From: Pelagomonas calceolata
Lineage: Eukaryota
Length of the DNA stretch: 64,000 nt
Direction of reading: 5' to 3'
NCBI GenBank assembly: GCA_918797485.1
Contig: CAKKNE010000001.1
Span: forward strand, 1,612,001-1,676,000
The notes below the pieces were generated by a model, which saw only the letters and a program-made list of their open reading frames with translations, did no database searches and was not told where the DNA came from. The position numbers were made by a program, and so were the translations under genes. Shown piece by piece: positions 704 to 62,982 of the stretch (the first letter of the stretch is position 1; each line of letters opens with the position of its first letter).

Positions 704-726
704 CTAGTGTCTTACATGCCGCTAAC
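704..726 (+). promoter_or_regulatory. CTAG-box element, putative promoter motif
   Basis: ctagtgtcttacatgccgctaac, ~210 bp upstream of the BAR-SH3 ATG. Confidence 0.6.
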
Positions 727-935
727 AAAAAAAGTTAGTCTTGCCCGGATTTTGCCTCGAGCAGCAGTTTCGCGGCGACTACGCCCTCGGACGTAGGTCC
801 AGGGCTGCGGGAATCGTGGTGAAGACCGCAAGGTCTTCGACTGTACCTTGGTAGCTGCCGCTCGCGGGCTCACACTTTGGAAGCCGTGAGACCACCCAGC
901 GCTTTCTAAGGCCGCGCGGGCGCTGAGACGTGACG

Positions 936-3065
936 ATGAACGCCTTCAAGCGCGCCAGCCTCAAGCTCAGCCACGCCGTCAAGCACAAGACGTTGAGTGG
1001 CGGGTCCACCGAGGAGATCGTGGACGAAGCTTTAGAGAAGCGACTGAGTGAACACAAAGCGTATGAAGAAAAAGTGAAGACGCTGCAAGCCTTGACGTTG
1101 GATGCGCGCGCGCAATTAGGAGAAGTTTTTCTCCAAATCGGCAACGCGGCGCAATGCGTCGAACAATTGTCAGATCATCAGCTCGACCCGGCCTCGGCAC
1201 GCGCGACGCTAGGCCTGCCGCCGGAGCCCGGCGACGACCCGAAGGCCGACGAGCAGACGTTCTTGATGCTCCTAGAAATAGCAGACAAGGCGAAAGTCGT
1301 GGGAGGTGCGATGCAGGAGGCCTTTCATGGTGCCTTCGGCGAGGGTCTCCAGAACGCCCTCCTCGCACCGTTGGAGCAGGAGACGCAAGCCTTCAAGGAC
1401 ACGGCGAAGAAATTGGAAGATCAGCATCGCACGGCCATGGAGGCGAGGCACTACCGCGAGAAGATCGTGAGTATGAATGCTGGGAAAACGAAAAACGACC
1501 CCGAGAAACTCGCGCGGAATGCTGGTAAGTCTGCGGAGGCCGAACGAGCGGCAGCAGACGCCAAGAAGGCTTTGGAAGATGCCTTTGCCGCGCACGATGC
1601 GGCTCGCTTGGACATCTGCTGCAAAAGGGTGGGTCATCTCAAAGGCATGCTGCATCGCTTCTGCGAGCTCGTACTGACGGCGTTGTCCATGGATGCGTCC
1701 ATGGTCAAGCTCACGAAAGGTAAAACCGAATTAGATGCGTCCAACGTCTACGGGGACGTGAATGTGATGTCGATAGCCGATCGCCTGAAGAAGGGCATGG
1801 GGTTGACCGAGCGGACGACGCCGCCGAAGCGGCACTTGAAATTGGCTCACTACAAGGCCCACGCGCGCACCGCGTTCACGACCGGTAAACAGAGTGGGGA
1901 AGACAAGCCGGTCGACGCGGAAGAGCGCGAGGTCGACGAGATGACGCTACGGTTCAACCAGTCCACGGAACAGCTCCAAAACCTCCTGAAGACGACGGAG
2001 GACGTGGCCAAGTGGTACGAGTCCGGGTTTAGAGGCATGGTGGCGGTTGCCGGGGAGTTGCCGGCGTTTGCTTCGGATTCCGATCCCTCGGAAAGGACCG
2101 CCGCGGTGCTCACTTTTCATGCTACTCTCGAGGAGGTGTCGGCGGCTCTAGCGGAGCAGTTCCTAGGACCGTTTCAATCTTCCGTGATAGAACCCTTGAA
2201 ACAAGGTCTGGAGGAGTACCGGGACACGACGCAGATGCTCCAAGATCGCAAGGCCAAAAAAATGGAGCGGGACCACTACCAGGCCAAGCTCGAAAACTTG
2301 GAAAGGGAAAAAGTCGAAAAGGACTCGCTGGAGAAGACCACAGTGAAGCAAAAACAAGAGCTAGCCGACCGACTCACTAGAAATAGGACCAAGGCCTTCG
2401 AAACAGCCGAAGAAGCGAAACAAGCCACGAAAGAAGTCAGAGATAGATTGCGAGCCTACTCCAAGTTCGCGCGGGGCCAGTGCCAGGCGGTGGGGGATGC
2501 TCTTGTACCTCTACAAAGGGATTTTTACGTTGCTTTTGCCGAGAAGGTCGTGAAGGGTCTTGCATTGGACCCCGACGCGACGCCGGTAGATCAGCGCGCC
2601 GCCGACAAGCTCAAGGACCTCATGGCGCGGGGCCTGGCCGTGCCGAACGCGGGCATGACGACGGACCGAGGCGCGGCGGCCGCGTTCCAGATGCGGCAGC
2701 CGACGGGGCCCCCCAAGACGCCGGAGGAGAGTCTTGCGGGCAAGGCTCCTCTCAGCGCGGGCGAGACGGAACGGGTGCGGGACTTCATGGTCGCGGAAAC
2801 CTCAAAACCGCCCGACCAATTGCCGCCCGCGCCGCTGCCGCCGCCGGCGACAGAGGAAAAGGTCCTGCCGCCGGGCATGATGGAGGTCGTCGGGACCTTC
2901 GACTTCGCGGCGGACCAGCCCGGGGACCTGGGCTTCAAGGCCGGCGACGTCATCCTCACGGACGCGGCGGCCTTCGCGGCCGCGGGCGACTCGGGCGGCT
3001 GGGTCTCGGGCGAGCTCAACGGCAAGCAGGGGTCCTTCCCCTCGAACTACTGCGCGCCGAAGTAG
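936..3065 (+). CDS. Tandem BAR-like domains plus C-terminal SH3 (amphiphysin/endophilin-like)
   Basis: Two related helical blocks (MEARHYREKI...KLARN / MERDHYQAKL...RLTRN), then a Pro-rich linker and SH3 motifs FDFAADQPGDLGFKAGDVI, GGWVSGELNGKQGSFPSNY. Confidence 0.8.
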   Translation: MNAFKRASLKLSHAVKHKTLSGGSTEEIVDEALEKRLSEHKAYEEKVKTLQALTLDARAQLGEVFLQIGNAAQCVEQLSDHQLDPASARATLGLPPEPGDDPKADEQTFLMLLEIADKAKVVGGAMQEAFHGAFGEGLQNALLAPLEQETQAFKDTAKKLEDQHRTAMEARHYREKIVSMNAGKTKNDPEKLARNAGKSAEAERAAADAKKALEDAFAAHDAARLDICCKRVGHLKGMLHRFCELVLTALSMDASMVKLTKGKTELDASNVYGDVNVMSIADRLKKGMGLTERTTPPKRHLKLAHYKAHARTAFTTGKQSGEDKPVDAEEREVDEMTLRFNQSTEQLQNLLKTTEDVAKWYESGFRGMVAVAGELPAFASDSDPSERTAAVLTFHATLEEVSAALAEQFLGPFQSSVIEPLKQGLEEYRDTTQMLQDRKAKKMERDHYQAKLENLEREKVEKDSLEKTTVKQKQELADRLTRNRTKAFETAEEAKQATKEVRDRLRAYSKFARGQCQAVGDALVPLQRDFYVAFAEKVVKGLALDPDATPVDQRAADKLKDLMARGLAVPNAGMTTDRGAAAAFQMRQPTGPPKTPEESLAGKAPLSAGETERVRDFMVAETSKPPDQLPPAPLPPPATEEKVLPPGMMEVVGTFDFAADQPGDLGFKAGDVILTDAAAFAAAGDSGGWVSGELNGKQGSFPSNYCAPK

Positions 3066-3196
3066 GGTAGGTCGCGCCCCCCTCCTAGCGGGTACAGGAC
3101 ACATTACATCTGACATCGAACCGTGGTCGGGATGCCGCGTCGACGGCGTCGTGCTGACGCCGTCGACGCGACGCGCCGCCGGGCCATTGGCACACG

Positions 3197-3748
3197 TCAC
3201 AAGGCAGTGGCCGTCGGCAGGTCCGCGCTCGGCGCGCCGTCGACGGGGACGGCCTCGGCCCAGACGCAGGTCTCGGCCTCGGCCGCGCTCGCCACGCGGG
3301 CGGAGGCCTGGATCGCCGCGGTGTTCGTGGTGCCGCCGGAACGCGCTGCGCGGACGGCGCGGAAGAACACGCTCGCAAACTGCGCCGCGCCGGCACTCAA
3401 AAATTCGAGCGTCCACCGCACCGTGGCGCCGTCCTGCATCGCCAGCCCGGTGAGGTAATTCGCGCCGAAGATGGGCTGCATGTACTCCTCGCGATGGATC
3501 GCGGTGAGCGGTATGCGCGCACCAATGCCGCTGTCGCTCGAGAGCCGCAGCACGGCTAGTGAGAGGAACGCCTCAGTGCCCGTAATTTTGGCGTTTCGCG
3601 ACTCATCAATGACCTCCCAGCGGACGCGTCGTCTCAATAATCTCGCCGCCGGATCCTCGTCGTCGTCGAACAATTGTGCTTCGGGCACAGCCCATGGCGG
3701 GCCGAGCTGAGCTTGTGGCTGGCGGCTGCGGGTAAACCAGGATGCCAT
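3197..3748 (-). CDS. WBP2-like PH-GRAM domain protein
   Basis: IPLTAIHREEYMQPIFGANYLTG...WTLEFLSAGAAQF resembles the WBP2 GRAM signature (QPxFGANY). Confidence 0.65.
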   Translation of the reverse strand: MASWFTRSRQPQAQLGPPWAVPEAQLFDDDEDPAARLLRRRVRWEVIDESRNAKITGTEAFLSLAVLRLSSDSGIGARIPLTAIHREEYMQPIFGANYLTGLAMQDGATVRWTLEFLSAGAAQFASVFFRAVRAARSGGTTNTAAIQASARVASAAEAETCVWAEAVPVDGAPSADLPTATAL

Positions 3749-3884
3749 TATGCTCTTATGCAGTGTGCAGTGTTGTAAGAGCTCTCACGCTCGCGCTGCA
3801 CTCGCGCTGCACTCGTGCGATCCAGACCTGCCGACGCCCTTTATCTATAGGCAGTCGAGCAACCTGGGCTTTGCCTCCGAGCTT

Positions 3885-3908
3885 GCTAGTGTCTTACTGG
3901 CCGCTAGC
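3885..3908 (+). promoter_or_regulatory. CTAG-box element
   Basis: gctagtgtcttactggccgctagc between divergent genes. Confidence 0.65.
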
Positions 3909-4231
3909 TCTGTCAGGATACCTCCCACGCCTCCGAGGGTGTGGGTTGCAAGCAACAGTACCTGTCTTTGGAGAGGTCCGCCAAGAAAAAAGCTCTGCAG
4001 CGCTTGCAGCGCTCTGCGAGCTGTGCTTGTGCGCCGCGCATTTCGCAACCCGTGAGAGGCATCGAGCACGCTGCACGTACACATGATGACGCAAACAGTG
4101 CGCACCTAGCTGCCCGCGGCGCTGCGCAAGCCTTGGGGCTGCCCCTTGCAACGCACTCGTGCTGCCGCCGCAAGAGCCGCGGTGCTGCGTAAAAGCCATA
4201 AGGGGCTGCCCCGTGACAGGAGTGACAGGCC

Positions 4232-6171
4232 ATGGGCAAGGGCGGCCGGCAGGTGGTCCCGGCGCCGCCGCTCGCCGGGCCGTCCAGCCGTCCGGGCTCG
4301 GCCGTAAGTCGTCCAGGCTCTGCCACCGCCAGCCGCCCGGGCACGAAGGACCTCCGCCACCGCGCCGCCGCGCGCCGCGCAAAGGACCCGACCTCGGACA
4401 AGGAGCGGCTCCGCGCCAAGTTCATCGAGCAAGTCAAGTCGTACATCGGCACGCCCTACGCGGAGAGATATCACAAGGAAGGCGACGAATTGTACGGCCA
4501 GCCCTTGTATCTCGACTGCTGCGGGCTCTTCCGGCAAGTCTTGCGAGATATGAGAGAGGACTTCGGCTTCGATGTGGGGCCGTGGAACCAGTGCTACCTC
4601 TATGCAACCTTACCGACGAAGCTGTCGTTCAAAGACGTCAAGCCCGGTGATTTACTGTTCGTCCAGGGCCGCTACACACGTGGACGAGAGCGGCGCCAGA
4701 AAGGGGATATTGTACATGTGGAGATGTACCTCGGAGAAGATCTCGGGAGCGGTCCCGAGTCCACATTAGCATCTAGAGATCATTGGGGCTGCGTATCCAT
4801 CCAAGACTCGTTCAAGTACGCGAGCCCGTGGTACGAGATCACCGCACTCCATTGGAGAAGCTTGGACGACTGGCTCGAGGGGCGCTGCGACCCGGTCGCC
4901 ATGCCGGGATGCTTTCGGTCGCACGACCCCTACGGCGAGAAGGTCCTCGACCAGCCGTTTCGGTCCCACACGTCGTTCTTCCGGGACCCCGAGGCCTGGC
5001 GCTGGCTCGCGCAGATCGGGCTGTTCCGGGCCGCTTGCCGAGCAGCGGCGCAACGGCGACCCTTACGCGTCTGGTCGTGCGGGTGCTCTTCCGGCGAGGA
5101 GTTGTACAGTCTCGCGTTATTGTACAGGCACCGCATCGTGCCGGTCCTGGGGGCGAAGGCGCCGCGGCTCGAGTGCGTGGGGTCGGACGTCCGGCAAGAC
5201 TTGCTAGACAAGGCAGCTGACGTGCGCGAGCGGCGGTGGACGCAGGCGGCAATTCGGACGGTGCCCCTCGATATACTGAAGAAGGGCTTCCGGGCCACCG
5301 CGTCGGCGACGACGCGCGCCTATTGCTTGCGCGATTCAACGCTGGCGTCGCCTTCCGTGTGGAAATTAATCCTTCGGCCTTGACGCCATCGACGGCGTCT
5401 CAGATGTGATTTCCACGCAGGTCGTCCTTCGCGTTCAGGATCGAGGACGCGGCCTGCGACGCGCCCGACGACGAACCTGATATCTTTGACTTGGTGCTGT
5501 GCCGCTATGCAGCGTTCCTCTACTGCGACGCGCCCGGCGCCCTCCGCGCGGCGGATCGCATCTCGTCGCGCCTTGCGCCGGGCGGCGTCGTGCTGCTTGG
5601 AGCGACGGACCCCATGCCGCGCGACTGCTCGCTCGAGCCGGTGCCCAATTCGACAAACGCCTGGACCCTCGATCCCGAAGCCGACGCGGCGCTGACGAGC
5701 GGCCGGCTCGCGCAGCCGACGCTCGACGCCTACAAAGCGGCGCGGCGGCGACGGCCCGCGCGGCCGCGTCGGAGCGCCTCGGAGCCGCCGCGGCGCCCGG
5801 TGGCGCGCGAGGACAGCGTCGTGAGGCGCCGGCGCGCCGCGTCCGTCGCCGCGCGCCGGCGCGCGGCCTCGGCGGCGCAAAAGCGCGCGGCGCAACCGCC
5901 CGCCGCGCCGAAGGAATCGAAGCTTATCTGGCGCCCGTCGACGCGAGGTGCGCCCGCGCGCCCGCCGCCGCCGCCGCCGCGCCGGCGAACGTCCTCGCGC
6001 CCGTCGAAGCCGTTCCTCTCGCGCCTGGCGGACCAGGCCGAACAGCATGCGGAAAAATTGAAGCAGCTCCGCGCGAAGACGCGGAAGGAGTGGAAGGAGG
6101 CGGGGCGGCCTTGCAAGCCGAAGCGTCGGAAGCGCCGGAAACGGAAAACGGCGAAGGTCGCGCCGCTGTGA
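4232..6171 (+). CDS. NlpC/P60-like domain fused to CheR-type SAM methyltransferase (2 exons: 4232-5346, 5421-6171)
   Basis: NlpC/P60 motifs YIGTPY, LDCCGL, PGDLLF, HVEMYLG. CheR motifs TSFFRD, RVWSCGCSSGEELYSLA, GSDV, FDLVLCRY, LAPGGVVLLG. Removing GT..AG intron 5347-5420 joins the two ORFs in frame. Confidence 0.75.
5347..5420 (+). mobile_element. Introner-like intron, family A (short, degenerate)
   Basis: GT donor at 5347; inverted ends ccgtgtggaaatt (5355) / gatttccacgcag (to 5420); imperfect 8-bp duplication gtcgcctt vs gtcgtcct. Confidence 0.65.
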
Positions 6172-6184
6172 ATAAGAATAGTTA

Positions 6185-7321
6185 CTACTTTCGCGCTCGC
6201 CGCTTGTACTCGGCGAGGCGCTTCTGGATCTTGTCGCACGCGCGCGACGCGTCCTTGGCCTCCTGCGCGTTGCCGAGCTTTTCGTGGGCCTTCGCGACGC
6301 ACGAGAGGACCTTCATGCGCCGCTCGTCGCGCTCCGCGTTCACGCGCGACGACATCGCCGGGACGTCTCTTTTGAGGTCGTCGAGGAGCTGCAGCGCGCC
6401 CTTGTACGACGCGAGCGCGGCCTGGAAGTCCTTCTTCTGGTAGTCGTCGGTGCCGGCGTTCTGCAGCTCCTTGATGCGCGCCCGGGCCGCCTTCTCGGCG
6501 TCTTCCGGGTTTGGTGGAGGCGGCGCGGGGGCCGGCGCGGGCGGCGGCGCCGGCGGCGCCGCGCCCATGCGCTCCAGCGCTTTCCGCGCCGCGTCCGACC
6601 CGGTGAACGCCGGCGCGGGCGGCGCGGGCGGCAGGGGCACGGGCGGCGGCGCGCCGACGCCGTCCCAGGCGTGGCCGACGGCACCGGCGCCTCCGCTTGC
6701 CCTGGGCATCGGCGGCGCCGTCGGCATGGCCGGCGCCTTGTTCCGCGCGCGGGGGTCGTTCGCGCGCGGCGACGTCGGCTTCTTCGGGGCCGCGGCGGCC
6801 GCGGGCGCCTGGCTCATCCAGGCGGGCGTCGTCAGGCCGCGCCCGCGCCCGCCGCCGGCCGGCGGCGGCGGCGGCGCCGCCGCCGCGCCGCTCGAGAAGG
6901 CGGCGGCGGCGCGCTTCGCGGCGGCGATGCGCGGGTCCTCCTGGGGAGCGGCCGCGCCCCAGCCGCCGCCCGCTTGCGGCGGCGGCTGGCCCCACCCGCC
7001 CTGTGCCGGCGGCGGTGCGCCCCAGCCACCCTGTGCCGGCGGTGGTGCGCCCCAGCCACCCTGTGCCGGCGGCGGTGCGCCCCAGCCGCCGTTTGCGGGC
7101 GGGGGCGCGCCCCAGCCGCCTCCTTGCGGCGGCGGCGGCTGCTGCGGCGGGCCGTCGTCGAAGCGCGAGCGCCTCTTCGGCGCCGGCTCGTCGCCGCCCG
7201 GCCTCTCGCGCTGCGCGGCCGCCTGCGACGCGCTCGCGAGCATGGAGTCGAGGGCGGCGTCGTTGCCGCCCTGCGTCATCCAAGCCGGGAGCGTCTGGCC
7301 CCGGCCGCGGCCCTGCGCCAT
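6185..7321 (-). CDS. Gly/Pro-rich protein with two GRGRG-x-LPAWM-like motifs and a C-terminal TPR-like helical pair
   Basis: GRGRGQTLPAWMT and GRGRGLTTPAWMS; (GGWGAPPPAQ)n repeat; TPR-like GTDDYQKKDFQAALASYKGAL. Confidence 0.65.
   Translation of the reverse strand: MAQGRGRGQTLPAWMTQGGNDAALDSMLASASQAAAQRERPGGDEPAPKRRSRFDDGPPQQPPPPQGGGWGAPPPANGGWGAPPPAQGGWGAPPPAQGGWGAPPPAQGGWGQPPPQAGGGWGAAAPQEDPRIAAAKRAAAAFSSGAAAAPPPPPAGGGRGRGLTTPAWMSQAPAAAAAPKKPTSPRANDPRARNKAPAMPTAPPMPRASGGAGAVGHAWDGVGAPPPVPLPPAPPAPAFTGSDAARKALERMGAAPPAPPPAPAPAPPPPNPEDAEKAARARIKELQNAGTDDYQKKDFQAALASYKGALQLLDDLKRDVPAMSSRVNAERDERRMKVLSCVAKAHEKLGNAQEAKDASRACDKIQKRLAEYKRRARK
6956..7135 (-). repeat. 30-bp coding tandem repeat (GGWGAPPPAQ, about 5 units)
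   Basis: Units such as gccccagccaccctgtgccggcggtggtgc repeated. Confidence 0.8.
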
Positions 7322-7527
7322 CTTTTTTTAGCAGTTTCTTCCTTGTCGGGCGCGTCTGCAGTGAAACCGCGAGTAGGCTCCACTTGAGTTGCTATAGCTC
7401 TGTCGCTCTCGTAACTGCCTCAGACGTTTGATTCGCGTTGCAGACGTTTGTTCTTAGCAACAGCCTTTGTGCACGGCAGCAGCGGCAGCGACTAAAGCGT
7501 TCGCCCTGTGCTGCTTGTCTAGGCATC

Positions 7528-7550
7528 CTAGTGTCTTACAGGCCGCTAGC
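7528..7550 (+). promoter_or_regulatory. CTAG-box element
   Basis: ctagtgtcttacaggccgctagc, ~207 bp upstream of the minus-strand ATG at 7321. Confidence 0.65.
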
Positions 7551-8019
7551 GATGTCGGGCCGATGCGGCTCAGATCTACCGGGAGTGGGGCGTGGCGATT
7601 GTCAAGGGTCGGGCCGAGTGTCTACTGGCTTTGTTGGAATGTACGGTGCCAAACGCGTCGCCGCGGTCCAAGGTCGCCTGCGGGAAGTCGCGGGACAAGT
7701 TGATTGAACGGGCGACGTTGCACATTGTTCCGGGGGGTTTGCCGAGGCGGTTCTGCTTAGAAGGAGGTACGCTGTTATGAAAGAAGCGGCTCGCGCCCGC
7801 CGCCGATGAATCGGCGACGTGCGTGTCTCCCTCTAGTGTCCCCCCCCCAGCCCTAGGCAGGGGCTCCGCCCACTAGTTCGACCGTAACAAGATCGGAGGG
7901 CCACTACTCCTAGCACCGTACCAAGAGATGTCTAGGCTAAAATAGAAGTACTAGTATATTAAGATAAGAAAGAAACTTCCGAAGAGAGGGGTCCCGCCAC
8001 CGAGACGAAAACGAGGCGC

Positions 8020-10695
8020 TCACCGCGCAGGAGTATCGGGCCCGCCGCGGAGCTCCGCCTTGATCGCGGCGAAGTCCGGCCGCGCGTCCGGCTCGTGGTC
8101 CCAGCACCTCCGCATCAACGCGACGAGGTCCGCGGGCGCTCCCTCGGGCACGGGCGGCCGTTGTTTCTGCAGACCCGCCTGCATCATGATCTGCATCTGG
8201 TTGAGACCACGCCAGGGGATATCTCCGGCGAGCACCTCGAAGACGACCATGCCGTACGCGTACACGTCCGTCTTCTCGGTAAAAGTATTCGATTGGAGGA
8301 GCTCGGGCGCCATGTACGCAGGCGTACCCTTCGCGTCGCCCATCGTCGACTGCGTCGCCGCCGTGTTCAGCGACTCGCTCTTCGAGAGCCCGAAGTCCGA
8401 CACCTTGCACCGCCGCGCGCCGTCGAGCAGCACGTTGAGCGACTTGAGGTCGCGGTGCTCCACGCCCTTCGAATACAAGTAGCTCATGCCCAGCGCCACG
8501 TCCAGGAGCCAGCTCCGCCGCTGCGCTTCGTCGACGGCAGTCGCGTAGTCATCAGCGGCGAGCGCCTCCCGCAGCGTTCCGCCCTCGCAGTACTCGAGGA
8601 CGAGGCCCAGGTACGACGAGTCCACTGTGATGGCGCCGATGACCGACACGATGCGCGGACTGCGAAGCTGGGTCATGATGGTAAGCTCCGTGGCAAACGC
8701 CTTCAGGTGCTTGGCGCGGTCCACCGCAAGCATGCCCACAAGGCTTGTTTTCTTCAGCACGACCGTGTCTCCCTGGTACTTGCCGCGGTGAACTTCGCCC
8801 TGCGAGCCCTTCGCGAATGGCTGCTCTTCGACCGAGTCCAGCTCGATCTCGAACTCTACCAGCGTACGCTCCTTCTCCTGCCGCGCCAGCGCCCGACCCC
8901 GCAGCTTCGAGTTCTTCGCCGCCACCATCTCTTTCACTTCGTCGAGCGACTCCTGCTGCTTCGTGTTCTGGTCGATGACCGTGCTCACGTCCGCGGCGAT
9001 CTGGTCCAGCTTCAGGCCGAGCGCCGAGAGCTCCTCGCTCTCGACGGCGCTGCCCTTCTCGATGCCGCACAGGATCGCCGCCCGCTGCGCCGCCGCCTGG
9101 TTGTTCGCGTCGACGGTCTGCTGGCCGAGGAGTTGGATCAAGCCCTCGATCTTCTCGAAGCGCTGCGCCTGGAGGGCGAGCTGCTGGAGGTCCAACGCCG
9201 AGCCGAGCTCCGTGCTGAGCTCGCAGAGCCGCTTGTCGAGGAGCCCGAACCGCCGCGCGTCGAGCGTGCCGGAGCAGAGCTTCGCGAACGCTCCCTTCTT
9301 CGAGAACTGCTGCAGGAACTTCGCAGCCTCGTCGAGCGCCTGGCCGATGGCCGTCACCGTCCGAGCGACGGCCTCGACGCGCCCGCTCGGCAGGCCCTGC
9401 GTCGCTTTGACGACGTCCTGGAGCTTTTGGGCGATTTCAAGTCCGCGGCGCTGCAGCATGACCGCGGCCTCCTTGTTGAAGCGCACCTGGCGCACCGCGA
9501 GACCGAGTTCGGCTAAGGCGTGCGCAAACGGCATCAGACACATATTGAGCGGCGGCGGCGCGGTCGCGGGGAGCGCCGTCAGAACCCCGGAGAGCGGCCC
9601 GAGGACGTCGGTCTGCGACGCCGTGAGCGCGGCGCCGACGGTGGCGCCGGCGGCGACCGCGGCCTTCGTGGACGTCGCGGGCGCGACCTTCGTGCCTCCC
9701 GCCGTCTGCGACGCTGTGCGCGCTTTGTCCGATGTGCGCCACACCTTTACGGTGCCGTCCCACGAGCCGCTCACGACGCGCACTTCGCCGGCCTGTGTCG
9801 TGTAGCACGCGACCGCGGTCACCCGCTCAGTGTGCCCTTGCAGCGTGGCGAGGAGCCGCTGCGTCTCCGGGTCCCAGATCCTTACGGTGTTGTCGACCGA
9901 ACCGCTCACGACACGCGCGGCGCTGGCCTGTGTCGTGTAGCACGCGACCGCGTTCACGTATTCAGTGTGCCCTTTCAGCGTGGCGAGGAGCTTTTGTGTT
10001 TCGGGGTCCCAGATCTTTACGGTCTTGTCCCACGAGCCGCTCACGACGCGCACGGCGCCGGCTTGTGTCGTGTAGCTCGCGACCGCGTTCACGTTGCTGG
10101 TGTGCCCTTCCAGCGTGGCGAGGAGCCGCTGCGTGTCAGGGTCCCAGACCCTTATGATGCCGTCGCGCGAGCCGCTCACGACGCGCGCGGCGCCGGCCTG
10201 TGTCGTGTAGCTCGCGACCGCGTTCACGTCGTAAGTGTGCCCTTTCAGCGTGGCGAGGAGCCGCTGCGCGTCCGGGTCCCAGATCTTTATGGTGTGATCC
10301 CGTGATCCGCTCACGACGCGCACGGCGCCGGCCTGTGTCGTGTAGCACGCGACCGCTTCCACGCTAAATTTGTGCCCTTTCAGCGTGGCGAGGAGCCGCT
10401 GCGCGTCCGGGTCCCAGATCTTTATGGTCTTGTCGTCCGAACCGCTCACGACGCGCACGGCGCCGGCCTGTGTCGTGTAGCTCGCGACCGCGTTCACGCC
10501 CGCGAGCAAATCGGTGTGCCCTTTCAGCGTGGCGAGGAGCTTTTGTGTTTCGGGGTCCCAGATCTTCAAGGTGTAGTCGTGCGAGCCGCTCACGACGCGC
10601 GGGGCGCCGGCCTGTGTCGTGTAGCACGCGACCGTTTCAGCAAAAAACTCGGTGTGCAGCGTGGCAATGAGTTTTTTGCTAGCACTACAGCCCAT
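8020..10695 (-). CDS. WD40 x7 + MLKL-like four-helix bundle + TKL-type protein kinase, predicted N-myristoylated
   Basis: Start MGCSASK (ATG 10695); seven 45-aa WD repeats; helical block LAELGLAVRQVRFNKEAA...LGSALDL; kinase motifs KGSQGEV, VVLKK, HRDLKSLN, DFG, GTPAYMAPE, DVYAYG. Confidence 0.85.
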   Translation of the reverse strand: MGCSASKKLIATLHTEFFAETVACYTTQAGAPRVVSGSHDYTLKIWDPETQKLLATLKGHTDLLAGVNAVASYTTQAGAVRVVSGSDDKTIKIWDPDAQRLLATLKGHKFSVEAVACYTTQAGAVRVVSGSRDHTIKIWDPDAQRLLATLKGHTYDVNAVASYTTQAGAARVVSGSRDGIIRVWDPDTQRLLATLEGHTSNVNAVASYTTQAGAVRVVSGSWDKTVKIWDPETQKLLATLKGHTEYVNAVACYTTQASAARVVSGSVDNTVRIWDPETQRLLATLQGHTERVTAVACYTTQAGEVRVVSGSWDGTVKVWRTSDKARTASQTAGGTKVAPATSTKAAVAAGATVGAALTASQTDVLGPLSGVLTALPATAPPPLNMCLMPFAHALAELGLAVRQVRFNKEAAVMLQRRGLEIAQKLQDVVKATQGLPSGRVEAVARTVTAIGQALDEAAKFLQQFSKKGAFAKLCSGTLDARRFGLLDKRLCELSTELGSALDLQQLALQAQRFEKIEGLIQLLGQQTVDANNQAAAQRAAILCGIEKGSAVESEELSALGLKLDQIAADVSTVIDQNTKQQESLDEVKEMVAAKNSKLRGRALARQEKERTLVEFEIELDSVEEQPFAKGSQGEVHRGKYQGDTVVLKKTSLVGMLAVDRAKHLKAFATELTIMTQLRSPRIVSVIGAITVDSSYLGLVLEYCEGGTLREALAADDYATAVDEAQRRSWLLDVALGMSYLYSKGVEHRDLKSLNVLLDGARRCKVSDFGLSKSESLNTAATQSTMGDAKGTPAYMAPELLQSNTFTEKTDVYAYGMVVFEVLAGDIPWRGLNQMQIMMQAGLQKQRPPVPEGAPADLVALMRRCWDHEPDARPDFAAIKAELRGGPDTPAR
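9735..10670 (-). repeat. 135-bp tandem WD40-coding repeat, 7 units
   Basis: ctcacgac recurs at 9770, 9905, 10040, 10175, 10310, 10445 and 10589; units nearly identical at DNA level; one unit has a 9-bp insertion. Confidence 0.95.
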
Positions 10696-11018
10696 GACCT
10701 GCCGACTGTCTAGTCCCAGCGTGCGTGCCCGCATGAACCCTGCCCGGGTTGGGCAGCCCAAAGGCCATTCATGTTCATCCAGTGGGTTGGCATCTAGGCC
10801 TAGTCCATAGCATAAAGCACAGCAGCTCGTTACGTGCGCAGGTTTTTTCGCTGAACCCGCACCTCAGCAGTAGCCTGAGTAGAGCTAGGCCGGCCTAGGC
10901 TCGATCGGGGAGTCGGGGTACGTAGTCCGAACCTCCGAACACCGTACAGAATTTGTTTCGGGGAGAAGCGCCCCATTCTACGATCTGTATATACTTCATA
11001 TAACCGGGGGGAAAGGAC

Positions 11019-13409
11019 CTAGGACCGACCCAGGTTCGACGCCTCGCCGAGCGGCTGCGGCGGCAGGCACGCGTCCGCGGCCGCGACGTGTCGGGCATAC
11101 CTAGCCCGGAACGTGGCGAAGTCGTCGCGCAGCGCGGCCCACTTGGCCGGCGCCCGGTCCTTCCACTCCTCGCGCAGCGCGGCCGCGAGCGTCGACGCGA
11201 CGGTCTCGGCGTCCGTGGCCGCGTCCTTCCAGGCGGCGGCGCGCGCCTCGGCCGCCTCGAGGCGCTCCTGGAGGGAGCCCGCGGCGCGCTTGGCGCGCGC
11301 CGCGTGGCGCGCGCCCGACGTCGTCGCGCTCAGGTCCGGCGACGGCACGAAGCGCGGGGGCACGACCGGCGGCGGCGACGACGCGTCCTCCGCCGCGGGC
11401 GGCGGCGGCAGCTCGGCGCTCTCGGCGACCGGCGCCGGCGGGACCGCGAAGCCCGGGCGCGGGCGCAGCGGCTGGGGCACGGCTCCGGTCCGGGCGAGTT
11501 CGCGGACCGGCGCGAAGGCGCGGACTGCGTCGCCCGCCTCCTCGTCGGCGGCCATCCTCGTCCGGCGGAAGGCGTCGAGGCGCTCGAAGTCCTCCGACGG
11601 CGGCGCCTCGCGGATGACCGGCGACGGGGCGGCGGCGGCCTCGGCCGCGGCCGCGCGGAGCGCCGCGCCCGCGTGCTCCTGCTCCTTCGCGCGGAGGTCG
11701 CTCGCCGCCGCGCGCAGCGCCGCCGTCGCGGCGGCAGCGGCGGCCGGCGGCGCGGCCTCCGGCGCGGGCGCCGGCTCGACGACGGCCGGCAGGGCGCCGG
11801 TCCGGGCGAGCTGGCTCGCCGGGCGGAAGGCGTCGGGCGGCGGACCACTCGGCGCCGTCGGCAGCGCCCCGGTCCGCGCCAACTGACTTTGGGGCCGGAA
11901 GGCGTCGGGCGGCGGCCCCGCGGGCGGCGCCGCTTTTGCGGCGGCGCGCCGCGCCTGCATGGCCTCGCGGAGCTCGTGCGACTGCGCGCGCCAGGCCGCC
12001 GGCTTCGCCGGCGCCGGCGCGGCCGCCGCCGCCGAGGCGCGGCGCTTCTTGACGCGCGCCGCGACGCCCGGCGCGCCGATGGAGCCGCGCCGCTTCCGGA
12101 TCGGCTTCTCGCGCGGCGGCGCGGGCGCCTCCGGTACGCAGGGCGCCGGCGCCGGCGCGGTCGCCTGGAGCCCCGCGTGGCACTTCTCGGACACCTCGGC
12201 GGCGTGCTTGCGCGCCGCCGCGACGGCCGACAGCGACTCGCGCCGCAAGTCGGACGACGCGCGCCGGAAGGGCGGCGCGCCCATCGCCGCGACGGACGCG
12301 CGCCGCCTTTTGGGAGCGTGGCCCACGGCCGACGGCCGCCGCGCCGGCCGTCTGGGTTCCAGGTCGCGCGCGCCGAGCGACGCCCGTCGCTTGGCTTCCG
12401 ACTTCTTGGGCATGGTCTTGGCCCTTTGGGCATACTTCAGGGTGTTCATCGTGTCGTCCACCGACAGCATGGACGGCGACACGCAGGCCACAACCACCAA
12501 GCGCACCGTCGCACTCTCGAGCGCCGATTTCAGAATCAACGTCAGCTTCGAGTCGCGGAACTTCGGCCGCGGGGCCAGCGGGCAGGATAATGCATTAATG
12601 CAGTTCGCCAGGGCCAATAACGAGCGGTTGATGTGCGCGCCCTCGGCCAAGCGTAAACCTCTATTGCCCGTCGCCGACGCGCGCTCCGAACCGGCTAAAT
12701 CGACGAGCGTCAGCGTCCGCTCCCCGAGCTTGACCTGGAGCACGGCGTGGCTCCTTGACGACGAATCGTTGGCGCCCGTCGCCTCCGTCGTCCGCTTGGC
12801 GTTGCCCTGACTCAAGAGGGAGAGGACTTCTTCCGCTTTGCTACAGGGCGCCTCGGTCAATTCCAGCGCCTTGACGACGCCGAGCCGCTCGTCCTCGCAG
12901 ACCTTGAGCGGCTTCGAGCGATCGGGACCGAGCAAATCGAAGACGCGCTCGTTGTACACTTCAAGATACGACACTTTCGCGACTGTGGAACTGGGTAGTT
13001 GCTCAAATAAGTCGCCCACCGCCCGCGGGATGACGCCCGCCCGTCCACTATCGCCCATCATCGTGTGGGTCTTGCCCGCGCCCGTCGCGCCGTAGGCCAC
13101 GACCGTCAGAGCCGGGATCTGGCCCTTGGCGAGCGTCGCGACGTGGGCTTTGGTCGTCTGTTCGTAGACGCTCTGCTGGCTCGTGGCCGGGCCGTAGGTC
13201 GCATCAAATTTGTATGTTGTCTCCGTGGCCTGCTGCGACTGGAGGTACTGGCCGCCCCGGCGCTCGTCGCGCCGCGCGATCAAAGAGCGGCCGTCGTCGA
13301 GAGCCTCGGCGCACGGCGTCGTCGGCGTTTCCTTGCGGCCGAAGGGGCGCACTCGTACGACGACGACGGTGTTCGTGCTGCCGTTCACGGCGGGGAGGGA
13401 GGTCTCCAT
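11019..13409 (-). CDS. Kinesin motor protein, kinesin-8-like
   Basis: VVVRVRP, P-loop AYGATGAGKTHTM, SSRSHA, LVDLAGSER, EGAHINRSLLALANCINAL, FRDSKLT, NTLKYAQRAK. Start placed at METSLP. Confidence 0.9.
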   Translation of the reverse strand: METSLPAVNGSTNTVVVVRVRPFGRKETPTTPCAEALDDGRSLIARRDERRGGQYLQSQQATETTYKFDATYGPATSQQSVYEQTTKAHVATLAKGQIPALTVVAYGATGAGKTHTMMGDSGRAGVIPRAVGDLFEQLPSSTVAKVSYLEVYNERVFDLLGPDRSKPLKVCEDERLGVVKALELTEAPCSKAEEVLSLLSQGNAKRTTEATGANDSSSRSHAVLQVKLGERTLTLVDLAGSERASATGNRGLRLAEGAHINRSLLALANCINALSCPLAPRPKFRDSKLTLILKSALESATVRLVVVACVSPSMLSVDDTMNTLKYAQRAKTMPKKSEAKRRASLGARDLEPRRPARRPSAVGHAPKRRRASVAAMGAPPFRRASSDLRRESLSAVAAARKHAAEVSEKCHAGLQATAPAPAPCVPEAPAPPREKPIRKRRGSIGAPGVAARVKKRRASAAAAAPAPAKPAAWRAQSHELREAMQARRAAAKAAPPAGPPPDAFRPQSQLARTGALPTAPSGPPPDAFRPASQLARTGALPAVVEPAPAPEAAPPAAAAAATAALRAAASDLRAKEQEHAGAALRAAAAEAAAAPSPVIREAPPSEDFERLDAFRRTRMAADEEAGDAVRAFAPVRELARTGAVPQPLRPRPGFAVPPAPVAESAELPPPPAAEDASSPPPVVPPRFVPSPDLSATTSGARHAARAKRAAGSLQERLEAAEARAAAWKDAATDAETVASTLAAALREEWKDRAPAKWAALRDDFATFRARYARHVAAADACLPPQPLGEASNLGRS

Positions 13410-13788
13410 TAGCAGCGGTTTTGCAGCGCAGGAAGCGGCCGCGGAGCTGAATAAACCGACGCGCGGCGGACCCCTGGGCGCGCTGCACTGCTGGCTGACC
13501 CCTAGGCGCGCAGTTCGACGCTGCGCGCTGCGCGGCGGGTGGGGCAAATGCCAACAGGCAAAAACGCTAATTATTAATTGTTGCTAAAAATTTCGAGGCC
13601 CTAGACGGGTCACGGACCAGTGGGCATGCCTGGCAACATTGCCTGGACGCGTATCGCGCGGCCGCTGATATCCCCAGCTGGAGCAAAGGCAAAAGAAGAA
13701 ACTCGCGGCGCTAATTGCTGCCCACGAGCCCACACGCGCTGCCTGACAGCCTACGCACAAGCGCACTCGCGACAAATAACTAGCTACC

Positions 13789-49693: not shown

Positions 49694-50218
49694 TCAATCC
49701 GACGCGGCGGCGTCCTCGATCTCCGCCACACGCGCGCGCTTCGGGCCGCGCCCGCAGCGGCACGGGTAATCGCGGTAGTCGCCGAACTCAATGCGCGCGA
49801 GGGCGCGATCTTGCTCGCGGTCGAAATCCCTCGCGAGCTTGCGCCGGCGCGCCTGGGCCACAGCGGCCATGTACCTCGCGTGATAGGTGCGGAGGTCGTC
49901 GAGGTAGGCGTCTTCTTCTTTGTTGCAGGTAGCCCTGGCTCTGGCTTCGGCCAGCGAGGCCGGGGACATGGAGCGGCTGCGGCTGCGGCGGCGGCGCGAC
50001 TTGCGACGGGACTTGGTCTTCTCGCGGCCGCGGCGGCGCTTGCGCGACGCGCCGTCGTCGTCGGAGGAGGAAGAGGACGAGTCGTCGGAGGAGGACGACG
50101 GGGACGGCGAGCGGCGGCGGCGCTGCAGACCACGGATCACGCCCTCCAGATCATCGACCTTGTCCCGCAGCTCTTCGACTTCCGCGCGCAGGCGGGTGAG
50201 TTCCTCGTTCGCCGCCAT
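49694..50218 (-). CDS. Small hypothetical protein (coiled coil, Ser/Arg-rich) lying between the VWA paralogs
   Basis: MAANEELTRLRAEVEELRDKVDDLEG heptads; RS-rich and SD-rich tracts. Confidence 0.55.
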   Translation of the reverse strand: MAANEELTRLRAEVEELRDKVDDLEGVIRGLQRRRRSPSPSSSSDDSSSSSSDDDGASRKRRRGREKTKSRRKSRRRRSRSRSMSPASLAEARARATCNKEEDAYLDDLRTYHARYMAAVAQARRRKLARDFDREQDRALARIEFGDYRDYPCRCGRGPKRARVAEIEDAAASD

Positions 50219-50625
50219 TACGGGCGCCGGGGCTGCGTCGGTCAGCAGTTTGCGCGCGGAACAAAAGACCTGGGATGGGAGAGCACCTCGAGACGACTCG
50301 AGCGTGCGGGGTTGTACGGCGGGCAGGCCTCTCTGCGCCCCAGGGGTCGTACGCGGCGGCGGCATAGTCGTGCCCAGAGCTCTCGGCGCGCGGGCTAGTG
50401 GCATTTCCGTGAGCTCATTCACTGTGCCTTGTTTTCACTGCGACAGCCGCCCGTGTTCCGCCCGCCCGACGCGACGGGCAACGGAGGGGTGCGCACGGAG
50501 CCGCAGCGACCGGTACACGCCGGCGAGGCAGCCTTTAGCGCCGCGGCAGGTCCATAAGCGCGCACACACACAGAGGCTGTGCCTACTCCCGGCCGCAGAC
50601 AGCCCAAAATCGCCCAAAACGCACG

Positions 50626-53017
50626 ATGTCGCTGCCAACCGGGCGCCGCAAGGGCACCTGCTCGCTGTGGCTGAAGCGCAACTGGGTCCTGCTGTCGCTT
50701 TTGGGCCTGGCGCTGGCCTCCGCCGCGCTGAGCGTTTTGCTCTACCTGGAACCATGCGACAAGAAGACGCAGTACGACACGCACAACACGTCGTCCGTCA
50801 TCAACGTCACGAGCTACGCGAATCGCACCGTTTTAGAGAACGTGCGGCTCCGGCGCAGAAATCTCAACAGTACCCGCGCGGCGGCCGCGGCGATGGCGTG
50901 CCCCGACGCGCCCCGTCGCAGGTTACGGTCTACGAGACGGTCATTGAGTTGGAAAACATCACGACGACGCAGAACGTTAGCTTCCTTGTTAATAACACGG
51001 TACGCTACAACGCCACGTACAACATGTCGTACGACGTGTCGCGAAATGTTAGCTATGACGTCGTTTACAATCAGACCTACAATATTACGTACAACACGAC
51101 CGTGAACGTGACCGAGTACGTCAACACGACCGTGAACGTGACCACGACGTACAACGTGAGCACGCACCAGCCCCTCGACGTGGTCCTCGCGCTCGACGCG
51201 TCGCGGTCAGTGACTCGGAGCAGGAACTCAACTCGAATGTGAATGAGACCACATTGTTCAACGCAGGTCCGTCTCGGACGCGGACTTTGTCGCGGAGAAC
51301 CGCGCCAGCCGCGAATTACTAAAGGGCCTCCGCGACTCGCTGACGGGCGACTTGCACGCGGGCGTCGCCGTCTGGGCGGTCGACGGCGTGTCGCGGCGGG
51401 ATTTGACATCAATTGCCAACGCGACGGAAATTGATGAAATGGAGGACGTCGCCCGGCTGCCCTACTGCGCGGCCGTCCCGCCGCCCTATTCGGAGCAGGC
51501 CGAGACCTACTCAAACTACTTCTGCGTGGGCGACCCGTCAGCGACTCGGAGCAGGAATGAATTTGAACTTGCCGGGGTCGCGTCGATGGCGTCAATTTGT
51601 CGTTCAACGCAGGCCGGCCGTCCAAGATGAGGACCACGCCTACGACCTGCGCCACGACGCCTCGCAAGTCTGGGGCCTCACCACGGGCACGTACTACGCC
51701 CAAGCTTTACTCAGGTGCCACGACGCGCTGATACCACAGAACGACGCCTTCCGGCTCTGCGTCGTCGTGACGGACGGCCAGATCGACGAAGATAGATACG
51801 CGCAATGTGTCGATGACGTACGTCAACCGACGATGACCTACACGGCGAATATGACTGGAGACTACTACGACGCGGGCACCGAGATTTATAAGGACGACTG
51901 CGGCTGGCACGCGAGCGTGCGGTGGATCGCGCCGGGGGCCTACGCCTTCTGCCAAAGCCATTCCATAGCGGAGTGCACCGTCGACGCCATTGCCGCTACT
52001 CTGAAGGCCAACGGCATTAAAGTCCTCAGCGTCCTCGTGAGCGAGAACAACGATTTAGAACCATACGTCGAGCGGATGGCCGCGCTCGCGTCGTGCGACG
52101 GCTACGAGGTGGCGAGCTGCCCCTACATCGTCGAGGAGGCGGACTTCGCTTCTTTAACAGACGCGGCCTCGACGATCGCCGGGGACGTCGCTTTGAACGT
52201 GGAGCTGCGCACTTCTGTTGTAGAGGAGACGATTTCCGTAGAAACGACTTTACCAATTGTCGTGCCGCGGCAGCGCCTCCATGAGGAGGAGGTGACCGAG
52301 ACCGTCACGCGGCAGGAAACGATTAGTGTGGTCGAGCCGGAGGTCCGCCAGGAGACGCGCCAGGAGATTAGTGTGTCCACTGTGATCGAGACGACGCAGG
52401 AGGAGATTACAAGGGAGGTCGAGGTCGAGTCCATTGAAACTAGAACATCGGAAGAACTCGTCACGCTCACCGAGGAGCACGTCCAACCCATGGAGATCAC
52501 GGAGGAGACCGTGACGCAAAAGACGATCTGCACCGGTTCGCCAATTTCGTTCTCGCTGTTGGTGCTGGCGTTGCCGTTGTTGGCCTACCTGTTCCTCAAA
52601 CCAATCCTGAACTGCCTCGAGAACTGCTGCTGCCCCTACTACGACGATGAGGAGGATTTGCTGGTCATGCACGCGAATCCGGCGTTCGGCATCGACCAGG
52701 AGGATTTGTCAAGGGCGCGGCCCATGCGCCGCCGGTCGACGATCGACAAGTTGCTGACGCGAGCTAAACACCTGCGGAAGAAGAAGCATGTGGGCGCGCC
52801 CCTCTCGCCCCTGCGCACGGCCTCACCCAAAAGTAATGAAGAGCCCCGCCGCCGGAGCGCCCCGTTATTGGCGAGAGACGCCGACACGGACTGGTCCTCG
52901 GGCGTCGCCGCGGTCTACGACGGCGACGACTGGCAGGAGTCCGTGGCCGACTTCGTCATCAACTTGGTGTGTTGCCGCTTCTGCCGCAAGGCCCCCGAGG
53001 AGTTCGAGGCCGTCTGA
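50626..53017 (+). CDS. Two-TM VWA stalk protein, paralog B (4 exons: 50626-50841, 50922-51205, 51267-51536, 51613-53017)
   Basis: Colinear with paralog A once three GT-AG introns are removed (ENVTV, DASRSVSD and GDPPAVQD junctions match A). Confidence 0.85.
51206..51266 (+). mobile_element. Introner-like intron, family B, copy 1
   Basis: Begins gtcagtgactcggagcaggaa and ends gttcaacgcag; same ends as 51537-51612. Confidence 0.7.
51537..51612 (+). mobile_element. Introner-like intron, family B, copy 2
   Basis: Begins gtcagcgactcggagcaggaa and ends gttcaacgcag; contains gcgtcgatggcgt. Confidence 0.7.
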
Positions 53018-53290
53018 GCATTTCCCCCCGCCGTGTGTAACTCCCCCCCCGTTTATCTAGTACTTAGGCGGGACGGACATATCGCCGGGTCCTGGCGCGC
53101 GCCCCACTCGCGGAGCGTCCGGTACCTGTGTGGGTGTACCGTCGACGGCGTGGTACCGGAAAATGACCGATACGTGATTCGAACACGTAACCTCCAGGAC
53201 TGGAATCTGACGCGCTACCGTTGCGCCAATCGGTCGAAGTCCGAGTACGGACGCCGCCGCGGTACGCATCGAGTCATCGACGGCGTCTCT

Positions 53291-54319
53291 CTAGGCCCGC
53301 GCCATCTCCGCGGCCACGGGCCCGCCGTAGGCCGGCGGCGGGTCGTTCTTGCCGCCGGACGCGACGACCGTGCCCTGCGCCACCGGCGGCGCGTAGGTGG
53401 CCTGGACGGGCTGGGCCGTGACCGAACCACCACCTCCGAGCGTGCCCTCCTTCTTGCGCTCGTTCCACTCGTAGTTGATCTGCGCGAACATGCAGCCCGC
53501 CGTCGTGTAGAACACCAGGTCCGCGATGCACTGGATGCACTGGGCCGCATCTCTTAGTTCCGGGATGAAGCAGGCGAGGATGTTGCAGACCTGTGTGGAA
53601 ATCAACCAGTGTGTCGGGTACACCATTTCTCGGCGATGACGCGGCCGCGCTGGTTCCGTCGAGCGGTGAGGAACCGACACCGCCACGCCGTCGAGCAGGC
53701 GTCGCGTCGATGGCGTGGAGTGGAGATCGACGCGGCGATTCAGGACGAACGCGCGCCAATTTGATTTCCGCACAGTTGCGGACGCACGCGAGCAGCTGCA
53801 TGAAGTTGTTGAAGCGGATGATGCGGCGGTCGCAGGGGTCCGACGCGAGGTTGAACTTGTCCATGACGTACATGCGCGTCGCCGAGAGCGCGCAGGACCT
53901 GCGTTCATCGATATTGATGAGACGCCTCGACGCCGTCGCCGCGACGCCTCGACGCCATCGACGCGACGCCTTCACGCCATGGACGCGACATCTCGACGCC
54001 ATCAACGCGGCGCCTCGACGCCGTCGCCGCGACGCCTCCACGCCGTCGCCGCGACTCGTGGAACGGGACGCCGCGACCCATACGCGCAGCAGCAGCCCTC
54101 GCAGGCGAGGCAGCAGGGGTTGCCCTGGTCGCCGACGGAGCCCGCCTTCCAGCAGGCCTTATCATAATACCCCTGGCAGCAGAGGTACGCGTCCATGTTG
54201 CCTTCTAACACCTTGTGGCGCATGTAGCAGTTGCCGACGCAGATGCAGCCGAGCGGGCACCCCAGCAGGCAGTGGAGCGGGTCCTTGCAGGGCGCGTCCT
54301 TCATGCCGACCTTGAACAT
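53291..54319 (-). CDS. Cys-rich PLAC8-like membrane protein (exons 54319-54084, 53898-53784, 53590-53291; 5' end may extend further upstream)
   Basis: Spliced product YLCCQGY..CLACEGCCCASCALSATRMYVMDKFNLASDPCDRRIIRFNNFMQLLACVCNILAC..ADLVFYTTAGCMFAQINYE. Confidence 0.75.
53591..53783 (-). mobile_element. Introner-like intron, family A (best-preserved copy)
   Basis: 15-bp TIR ctgtgtggaaatcaa / ttgatttccgcacag (1 mismatch); 8-bp TSD GTCCGCAA / GTCTGCAA supplies the GT donor, and the TIR supplies the CAG acceptor. Confidence 0.88.
53921..54052. repeat. 22-bp x6 tandem repeat inside intron 53899-54083
   Basis: Consensus gacgcctcgacgccRtcgMcgc; units start at 53921, 53943, 53965, 53987, 54009 and 54031. 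Confidence 0.9.
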
Positions 54320-54901
54320 GTTCGCGCGGCCCGCCGTGCGGTCGCCCTCGACGGGGCCTGCGTTTTGTGTCGCGCGTCGGCGCGGCGGTTTGACGCTTCT
54401 CTCGGGGGTCGCGTCTCGCGTCGCGTCGTGGACATGGTCGCGCGGCGGCGGCGCGGCGCGGTTTCACAGTTCTCTCGCGGGTCGGGTCTCGCGTCATCGT
54501 CGCGCGGGCGGTTTTGTCGATAATTCCGGCGCGCCCGGCCAGGCGGTCCGAGTCGCCGCCGCCAGGCGGCGCCGCCGAGTCGGCTCCGCCGCCGCGGCGG
54601 TCGATCGGCGGCTCCAGCTGTTTTTCACATTTTTGTCTCTACACGATCAGGCGGCGCCGTGGCGCCTTCGACGCCGGGCTGGGACCATCGTCAAAGAAGC
54701 AGAGGCACATATTATAGGCCAAGTCGTCGCACCGCTTACGCGAGGCCTCGGCTAATTCCAAGCCCAAAAAGTCTGGCTAGTGTGTCCATATACGCTAAGC
54801 GAAAAACGGAGGAGACTATGATGCGTCCAATATCACACAACGCACGAATAGTCGCATTGCCGCGAAACTGCCGCCGACACTAGGACCGTTTCGGACCCGC
54901 T

Positions 54902-54939
54902 CTAACCCGAATCTCGCCCAACCCTAACCCTAACCCTTA
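54902..54939 (+). repeat. Short interstitial telomere-like (CCCTAA) tract
   Basis: ctaacccgaatctcgcccaaccctaaccctaaccctta. Confidence 0.5.
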
Positions 54940-55103
54940 CTTCTAGTGGTATCTGGGAAATGTAATTAAGAGATTGCGCGTAAAGGGGGGATGCATGCAG
55001 GGGCTCGCGAACTTGGGGGCGAGGTATGAGGGGCGAGGCGGCGCCGGGCGTGTCCGCCGCGCCGTCGGAGGGCCGCGGTGCTGCCCAGCGCGGGCGCACG
55101 AGC

Positions 55104-59006: not shown

Positions 59007-59029
59007 TGTAGTAACTGTGTTTAACAAAC

Positions 59030-60147: not shown

Positions 60148-60171
60148 GCTAGTGTCTTACTGAACGCTAGC
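60148..60171 (+). promoter_or_regulatory. CTAG-box element
   Basis: gctagtgtcttactgaacgctagc between divergent genes. Confidence 0.6.
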
Positions 60172-62711: not shown

Positions 62712-62958
62712 TGTGTGTTAGCTCGCTCAGTGCTAGCTCTGCTTGCCTGGCTTCCGTGGCCTACGTCTTAGACGAGAGCGGCGAGCCGCAGGAGACTGTT
62801 CATACTACCTCGGCCGAACGCTGCCCATGTGCCGTGCTGCCATGCGGTACGGTCGCAGAAGTGCGCCTCGGTTGCGGGTTAGCTCGCTCGTACCTCCGCG
62901 CGCCTCAATCTCACCGCGCGGGCAGCCTAAACGCATGCAATTTGCTCTGCTTTTTTTG

Positions 62959-62982
62959 GCTAGTGTCTTACTGGCCGCTAGC
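62959..62982 (+). promoter_or_regulatory. CTAG-box element
   Basis: gctagtgtcttactggccgctagc, identical to the 3885 copy, upstream of ATG 62711. Confidence 0.65.

Follow-up and report, generated by a model that had tools for sequence, protein, structure and literature searches.

A recurrent, apparently undescribed promoter-proximal element in the compact genome of Pelagomonas calceolata

A two-armed motif with CTAG at both ends recurs between the genes of a 64,000-nucleotide stretch of Pelagomonas calceolata DNA (GenBank assembly GCA_918797485.1, contig CAKKNE010000001.1, positions 1,612,001 to 1,676,000 of the forward strand), referred to here as the window. The motif is a real and apparently undescribed promoter-proximal element. 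Its likely role is to bind an abundant, sequence-specific promoter-opening factor, which would recognize two unequal half-sites and let transcription start on either side at a distance of 20 to 130 bp. The left arm (TTG-CTAGTGT-S-TT) is long and the right arm (CGCTAG-C) short; between them is a spacer of variable sequence whose length differs by 1 to 4 bases. Some 16 bases in a span of 22 are near-fixed, and the flanks around them are soft.

Results

An earlier sequence-only reading of the window had reported near-identical copies of a 24-bp element, and this recurrence is confirmed. At up to three mismatches, the 24-mer matches seven positions in the window (703, 3885, 7527, 32946, 37342 on the reverse strand, 60148, and 62959) and none in 100 shuffled sequences. 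The copy at 23945 (reverse strand) has four mismatches, and the copy at 46142 is shorter by one base (N13). The spacing had been given as CTAG-N15-CTAG; it is in fact CTAG-N14-CTAG, with seven exact occurrences in the window against 0.2 expected, and it ranges from N10 to N15 across variant copies. The four loosest copies (21946, 28519, 43389, and 54776) score 24 to 25 against the 24-mer, within the range of the shuffles (up to 29). All 13 named sites fit the pattern CTAGTRT-N4-10-CGCTAR, which was fitted post hoc to these sites and has no match in 100 shuffles. The window is compact, with 57 to 72% GC, and none of the 13 sites overlaps an open reading frame (ORF) supported by Pfam or by our coding model.

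Further copies were collected from metagenomes with the pattern CTAGTGTCTTAC-N3-4-CGCTAG. The scan yielded at least 122 stretches (80 with full flanks) holding at least 125 distinct further sites; the loci are numbered from L001 onward, and L067, a duplicate of L068, was left out of the coding-model analysis and all later ones. These sites were assigned to the P. calceolata complex, and a protein encoded at L039 is 96% identical to a P. calceolata protein. The nearest named relatives of the THOC7 protein encoded in the window are from Aureococcus (45 to 53%) and Pelagophyceae sp. CCMP2097 (44%). Extrapolation from the window, at 7 to 13 copies per 64 kb, gives 3,500 to 6,600 copies genome-wide, for a genome described as 32.4 Mb with 16,667 genes (10.1101/2021.10.25.465678). 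Spikes of depth over motif bins in DNA run X3 fit many copies and were not used as a copy number.

Viral contigs gave no exact match to the motif and no match to the end of the E-repeat described below. Eighteen viral matches to a looser pattern, with 36 to 50% GC and mostly without the typical flanks, were read as chance. Prokaryote genomes (596 Gb) contained eight matches. Six of these, in metagenome-assembled genomes (L122 to L126 and L129), have typical flanks and are probably algal contamination, and the other two were read as chance. The motif could act as a marker of contamination in prokaryote metagenome-assembled genomes.

Flank preferences among the 125 sites fade gradually. On the left, G is preferred at −1 (76%), T at −2 (72%) and −3 (67%), C at −4 (46%), and G at −5 (59%); on the right, C is preferred at +1 (83%) and T at +2 (52%), with background composition beyond. 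The flanks are not mirror symmetric: T at −2 is present in 91 of 125 sites, and its mirror base at +2 in 22 of 125. Because the scan pattern itself biases conservation, arms and spacer were compared in 26 sites gathered by plain edit distance (nine in the window and 17 in the loci but outside the scan pattern), a search that returns 0 to 3 hits in shuffles. In these unselected sites, differences fall on 10 of 338 arm positions and on 45 of 234 positions in the middle (p = 6e-7 versus uniform); neither the left-hand CTAG nor the right arm's CTA varies at all, and the TT differs once. This pattern would fit a protein reading two half-sites, in line with the multipart factor envisaged in the sequence-only reading.

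Weak folding of the top strand, which includes a G-T wobble, raises the question whether the motif forms a hairpin with a structural role in RNA or single-stranded DNA. Yet compensatory forms are lacking, since perfect dyads in 356 kb number none for CG..CG and only two, unrelated, for TG..CA, and the asymmetric bases are each kept in 25 of the 26 unselected sites. Mapped 5′ ends also place the motif outside transcripts, and no Rfam family matches it, the only Rfam match in the window being a tRNA. Judged by these substitution patterns, it is sequence rather than base pairing that is conserved, and a structural role for the hairpin is scarcely conceivable.

Genes at the loci were predicted with our own Markov coding model, which was trained on the window genes and the loci and has no introns. 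Although predicted ORFs span 216,576 of the 355,876 bp, none of the 138 sites falls inside one, in agreement with the earlier claim that every copy is intergenic. Promoter-side placement is also supported, the median distance to a predicted start being 181 bp on one side of the motif (n = 53) and 178 bp on the other (n = 43). Genes were called on both sides (within 800 bp) of 42 sites, of which 19 are divergent, 21 tandem, and 2 convergent. Counted by gap, the motif occupies 20 of the 41 divergent gaps, 24 of the 54 tandem ones, and 4 of the 57 convergent ones, which amounts to a scarcity in the last class (4/57 versus 44/95, p = 2e-7); CTAG outside the motif has equal density in all three (3.0 to 3.3 per kb).

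Position within gaps is stronger evidence of placement than this scarcity. In 23 tandem gaps, the distance from motif to start has a standard deviation of 80 bp versus 154 bp under uniform placement (p = 0.0004), with 17 of 23 distances at 100 to 270 bp (p = 0.002) and none below 60 bp. The stop, by comparison, lies farther off the longer the gap (rho = 0.70), which ties the motif to the start and not to the stop. In 19 divergent gaps, the motif is central (p = 0.0002). The gene start lies on one side of the motif in 15 cases and on the other in 8; orientation is therefore free, as had been observed from the window copies. The DNA within about 100 to 170 bp of the motif is AT richer and CpG poorer, a measurement made at motif loci only, with no motif-less control.

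A central position in divergent gaps would also be given by a bound factor that is mainly an insulator between close neighbors, or a mark of replication origins, rather than an activator; the many promoters without the motif and the 2 of 42 sites that appear convergent point the same way. Nevertheless, the motif in tandem gaps follows the start, and the extrapolated number of copies would be large for origins in a 32-Mb genome. For these reasons, we regard an insulator or origin mark as unlikely.

Within the window, manual reading places 4 of the 13 sites in divergent gaps and the remainder in tandem ones; to describe the copies as often lying between divergent genes was thus an overstatement. 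The divergent copies are located at 3885 to 3908 (plus strand; predicted starts at 3748, minus, and 4232, plus), at 43388 to 43407 (plus; the shortest copy, N10), at 46142 to 46164 (plus; N13, midway between methyltransferase and THOC7 genes, 187/186 bp), and at 60148 to 60171 (plus; midway between pseudouridine synthase and L21 genes, 144/139 bp). On the plus strand, other copies lie at 703 to 726 (three mismatches; ATG at 936), 7527 to 7550 (206 bp from a predicted minus-strand start at 7321), 28518 to 28540 (loose, N13; upstream of a minus-strand Ufd2/U-box gene, 28273), 32946 to 32969 (184 bp ahead of a DEAD_2 helicase gene, 33153), 54776 to 54799 (loose, N14; a pattern match), and 62959 to 62982 (between the start of a minus-strand TTL gene and the 3′ end of the next gene, marked by a read pile at 63132 to 63135). 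Two more lie on the minus strand, at 21946 to 21968 (loose, N13; upstream of a U-box gene at 22153) and 23945 to 23968 (four mismatches, as above; 35 bp past a stop and ahead of a plus-strand gene). The coding model assigns the consensus copy at 37342 to 37365 (minus strand), alone in the window, to a convergent gap. However, a minus-strand ORF with a signal-peptide-like start, outside the coding model, begins at 37246, 96 bp from this copy; the site, which lies between that probable start and the end of a ribosomal L11-family gene (37445), is therefore probably tandem.

Transcript 5′ ends were taken from the read ends of stranded poly(A) RNA sequencing. One pile (10 molecules, run X21), at position 764, lies 38 bp beyond the copy at 703. 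At the 43389 site, piles appear in all four runs, from one sample, at 43347 to 43369 on the minus strand and at 43523 to 43534 on the plus strand, that is, 20 to 42 bp and 117 to 128 bp from the motif on opposite sides. The genes that diverge from this shortest copy are one with a weak chlorophyll a/b-binding match (42793 to 43215, minus) and a highly expressed spliced gene (43523 to 44479, plus).

Distances of 38 bp and 20 to 42 bp would suit a core promoter element proper, one that, like the oomycete INR+FPR block, sets the position of the preinitiation complex. But one of these two starts is on one side of the motif and one on the other, and the third is 117 to 128 bp off. Moreover, the motif can face either way with respect to the gene, and is even flipped between the orthologous loci L036 and L071 (see below), and two mapped promoters have no motif. 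The motif as a fixed core promoter element, in the strict sense put forward in the sequence-only reading, is not supported, and we consider a positioning role of this kind highly improbable.

Three pairs of loci that have a common neighbor gene both carry the motif. In L016/L039, both flanking genes are common, with 96% amino acid identity, and 43 of 109 four-fold sites differ; in L015/L100, 5 of 31 four-fold sites differ; and in L036/L071, 8 of 19 differ, with the motif inverted and 194 versus 226 bp from the ATG. Neither L049/L082, with only the downstream side in common, nor the zf-MYND paralogs L053, L078, and L113 were counted as orthologs. All ortholog pairs were selected for motif presence, and because both members had been fetched by the pattern, the number of pairs was checked against expectation. 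By a rough calculation that assumes even sampling, 125 draws should give about 2.2 pairs if sites are retained and 3e-4 if the 18 arm bases drift like four-fold sites (0.39). The 60-bp flanks of the motif, in five comparisons (two ortholog and three paralog pairs), are 48 to 68% identical versus 46 to 53% in shuffles. Among zf-MYND/RING paralogs, L053, L078, and L113 have the motif upstream, and L010 has an unselected variant.

Two side observations concern the same loci. An expanded zf-MYND-like/RING-like family, with cysteine patterns read by eye, is over-represented at motif loci (L053, L078, L113, L010, L025, L031, L001, and L004). In addition, a noncoding stretch 3′ of the motif, at about 780 to 940 in L049 and about 125 to 287 in L082, shows about 87% identity across 200 bp and hardly varies in its core; its flanks differ at the two loci, and it has no Rfam match.

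Retention also bears on whether the motif is a selfish mobile unit of 18 to 24 bp, or an excision footprint at CTAG targets, that is tolerated between genes and has no role in transcription. Such a unit would account for the high copy number, for the terminal CTAGs, which could be a 4-bp duplication, for the 7- to 8-bp hairpin of the top strand (−1.8 to −4.2 kcal/mol), and for the inversion in L036/L071. Against it, the conservation is position specific, the flank preference is asymmetric, and there is no outer duplication, the 125 sites showing no excess of 2- to 9-bp repeats outside the motif. The motif has also been retained across 39% synonymous divergence and is anchored to starts rather than to convergent gaps. 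No empty site is found among the matches listed for DNA runs X3 and X14 over positions 1 to 14000, a weak observation given three sites and little divergence. A selfish unit is thus very unlikely. The mini-transposon suggested as an alternative in the sequence-only reading fares no better as a 24-bp mobile unit, with no target-site duplication, soft asymmetric edges, and nonuniform decay; an older mobile origin followed by co-option, on the other hand, is compatible with these results.

Sequences shared beside some copies are relevant to such an origin. An extension of about 45 bp, the D-module, lies downstream of 8 of 156 sites (10 with two borderline cases), including the 62959 copy, where it spans 62986 to 63010 on the plus strand. 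These sites are at unrelated loci, with the D-module in one orientation and 4 to 59 bp away, and each well-matched copy found has the motif or a variant just before it. The consensus spacer is commoner in D-module sites (6/8 versus 46/148, p = 0.017), and the free spacer still shows a majority sequence. The E-repeat, a separate dispersed repeat that contains a GC-rich hairpin and is rich in CTAG at one end, adjoins the motif in seven of nine copies, with its conserved end pointing away, four of the seven having been fetched because of the motif. In the window, a fragment at 597 to 678 (minus strand) adjoins the 703 copy, a longer copy with both hairpin and CTAG-rich end at 7704 to 7927 (plus) adjoins the 7527 copy, and an end fragment at 30757 to 30795 (plus) has no motif within 2 kb.

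These findings would be expected if promoters had been seeded by a transposon, the motif being the remnant of an old nonautonomous element whose arms were kept by selection at promoters. In contrast, about 95% of sites share no flank beyond 5 bp on the left and 2 bp on the right, and no copy bears both extensions. Terminal inverted repeats and target-site duplications were not seen, and the window and the fetched loci yielded neither a complete element, nor a pair of terminal repeats, nor a transposase. The D-module could also be the site of a second, cooperating factor. Neither extension has an Rfam match (11 loci). We therefore hold an origin by transposon seeding as a tentative possibility, one that is compatible with a promoter-opening function. 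It is rather doubtful that a fifth to two fifths of the genes rely on one long element spread by a CTAG-ended mobile element and now read by a domesticated transposase-derived factor, and we would hesitate just as much to call this transposon co-option at the scale of a general promoter set.

Several features of these repeats were seen in passing. The E-repeats at L037, L060, L064, L076, L105, and L110 and in the window are conserved at one end and truncated to varying extents at the other, and plus-strand RNA reads over the 7704 copy carry other letters. A segment just left of the motif (7519 to 7531 in the window; L054, L056, L058, L094, L099, and L101) occurs in both orientations between copies, with CTAG-like bounds, hinting at local inversions at CTAG.

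Discussion

The promoter-opening factor that we consider likely may work as follows. One protein, either a two-domain protein or an asymmetric dimer, would read both arms as related, unequal half-sites across a tolerant spacer. The bound factor would mark a nucleosome-poor gap and hold the promoter open, and initiation would then take place at a distance of about 20 to 130 bp, on the side or sides where a gene begins, much as at sites of the yeast general regulatory factors.

Some of our results weigh against this explanation. The scarcity of the motif in convergent gaps weakens to p = 0.057 once gap length is corrected for, and the gene calls come from an intronless model of our own whose noncoding training set included motif copies. 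The mapped 5′ ends are not from cap analysis of gene expression (CAGE), and a pile is listed at only two of the eight sites examined, the others having low depth. Because promoters with piles at 10794/10800 and 13723 have no motif, the motif is not required for transcription. A zf-MYND paralog, L025, has no motif within 330 bp, and the sharing of D-module flanks by 8 of 156 sites, at unrelated loci, is not predicted by binding alone. Finally, as a sequence-based indicator of nucleosome phasing, CpG periodicity of nucleosome length was measured from the motif or from the ATG. It gave nothing convincing and was discarded: the best periods, 120 to 230 bp, were inconsistent across settings, with uncorrected p values of 0.015 to 0.42.

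The closest known system in its workings seems to be that of the yeast general regulatory factors. Abf1 sites are bipartite and orientation free. Sites for Abf1, Reb1, and Cbf1 are abundant and promoter proximal, are associated with nucleosome-free regions, and form a lineage-specific repertoire (PMC2897762). The Pelagomonas motif resembles them as an abundant promoter-proximal motif but is longer, and its spacer tolerates insertions and deletions. In Caenorhabditis elegans, m1m2 pairs derive from CERP2 and CELE2, both MITEs (miniature inverted-repeat transposable elements), are bound by the THAP protein HIM-17, and are present in about a third of a promoter class (10.1101/2022.01.21.477252). 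They too are long two-part motifs with variable spacing, kept at orthologous promoters, and a repeat origin is possible for both. However, m1m2 has thousands of nonpromoter copies in recognizable MITEs with inverted repeats, whereas no full element was found for the Pelagomonas motif, whose copies mostly have no shared flank and lie nearly all by predicted starts.

Among stramenopiles, the oomycete INR+FPR and DPEP are core promoter motifs of 16 to 19 nucleotides, found in a minority of genes and placed at the start site or immediately downstream of it (PMC3599244). The Pelagomonas motif is likewise a long stramenopile promoter motif in a minority of genes, but it is upstream, orientation free, and near-dyad, a distinction drawn from the description of the oomycete motifs rather than from their sequence. 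The introner elements of P. calceolata are about 210 bp long, inside genes, and spliced, with terminal inverted repeats (10.1101/2021.10.25.465678). These are also multicopy, noncoding sequences of the same lineage, and they occur in the window as a repeat distinct from the motif. Bacterial REP (repetitive extragenic palindromic) sequences and Helitron ends are short, extragenic imperfect palindromes with a terminal tetranucleotide, and they favor gene 3′ ends or mark element termini. Unlike them, the Pelagomonas motif is tied to starts and has no compensatory pairing. The Aureococcus virus AaV methylates CTAG (PMC12700378), with no shown link to the motif in the excerpt of that paper.

In the literature covered, which mostly leaves out subscription journals, there was no description of the motif and no pelagophyte promoter element. 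The words “motif” and “promoter” are absent from the main text of the genome preprint (10.1101/2021.10.25.465678), and the 12-base arm string had a single match, on an unrelated subject, in partially covered full texts.

If our interpretation is correct, one motif would be a main promoter organizer in a globally abundant alga, and the motif itself could serve as a direct bait to identify its factor. It could also help to mark gene starts when metagenome contigs are annotated, and supply a part for transgene promoters. The shared extensions, for their part, would provide a testable case for the seeding of a general promoter network by a transposon in a compact genome.

Additional features of the window

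Palindromic, multicopy introner-like sequences are located at 43965 to 44137, 53588 to 53775, 53913 to 54088, about 5360 to 5420, and 36600 to 36700; the first of these is spliced as GT..AG in hundreds of reads. Near the 54776 copy of the motif, a short run of interstitial telomere-like repeats lies at about 54905 to 54940. Three related ORFs at 47552 to 53017 have 200-bp segments that are 70 to 75% identical and form a local tandem family with no Pfam match. At the tRNA gene (53164 to 53235, minus strand), RNA reads join the end to the start with 27 to 32 extra letters and carry other letters; these reads perhaps come from tandem tRNA copies elsewhere or from unusual precursors.

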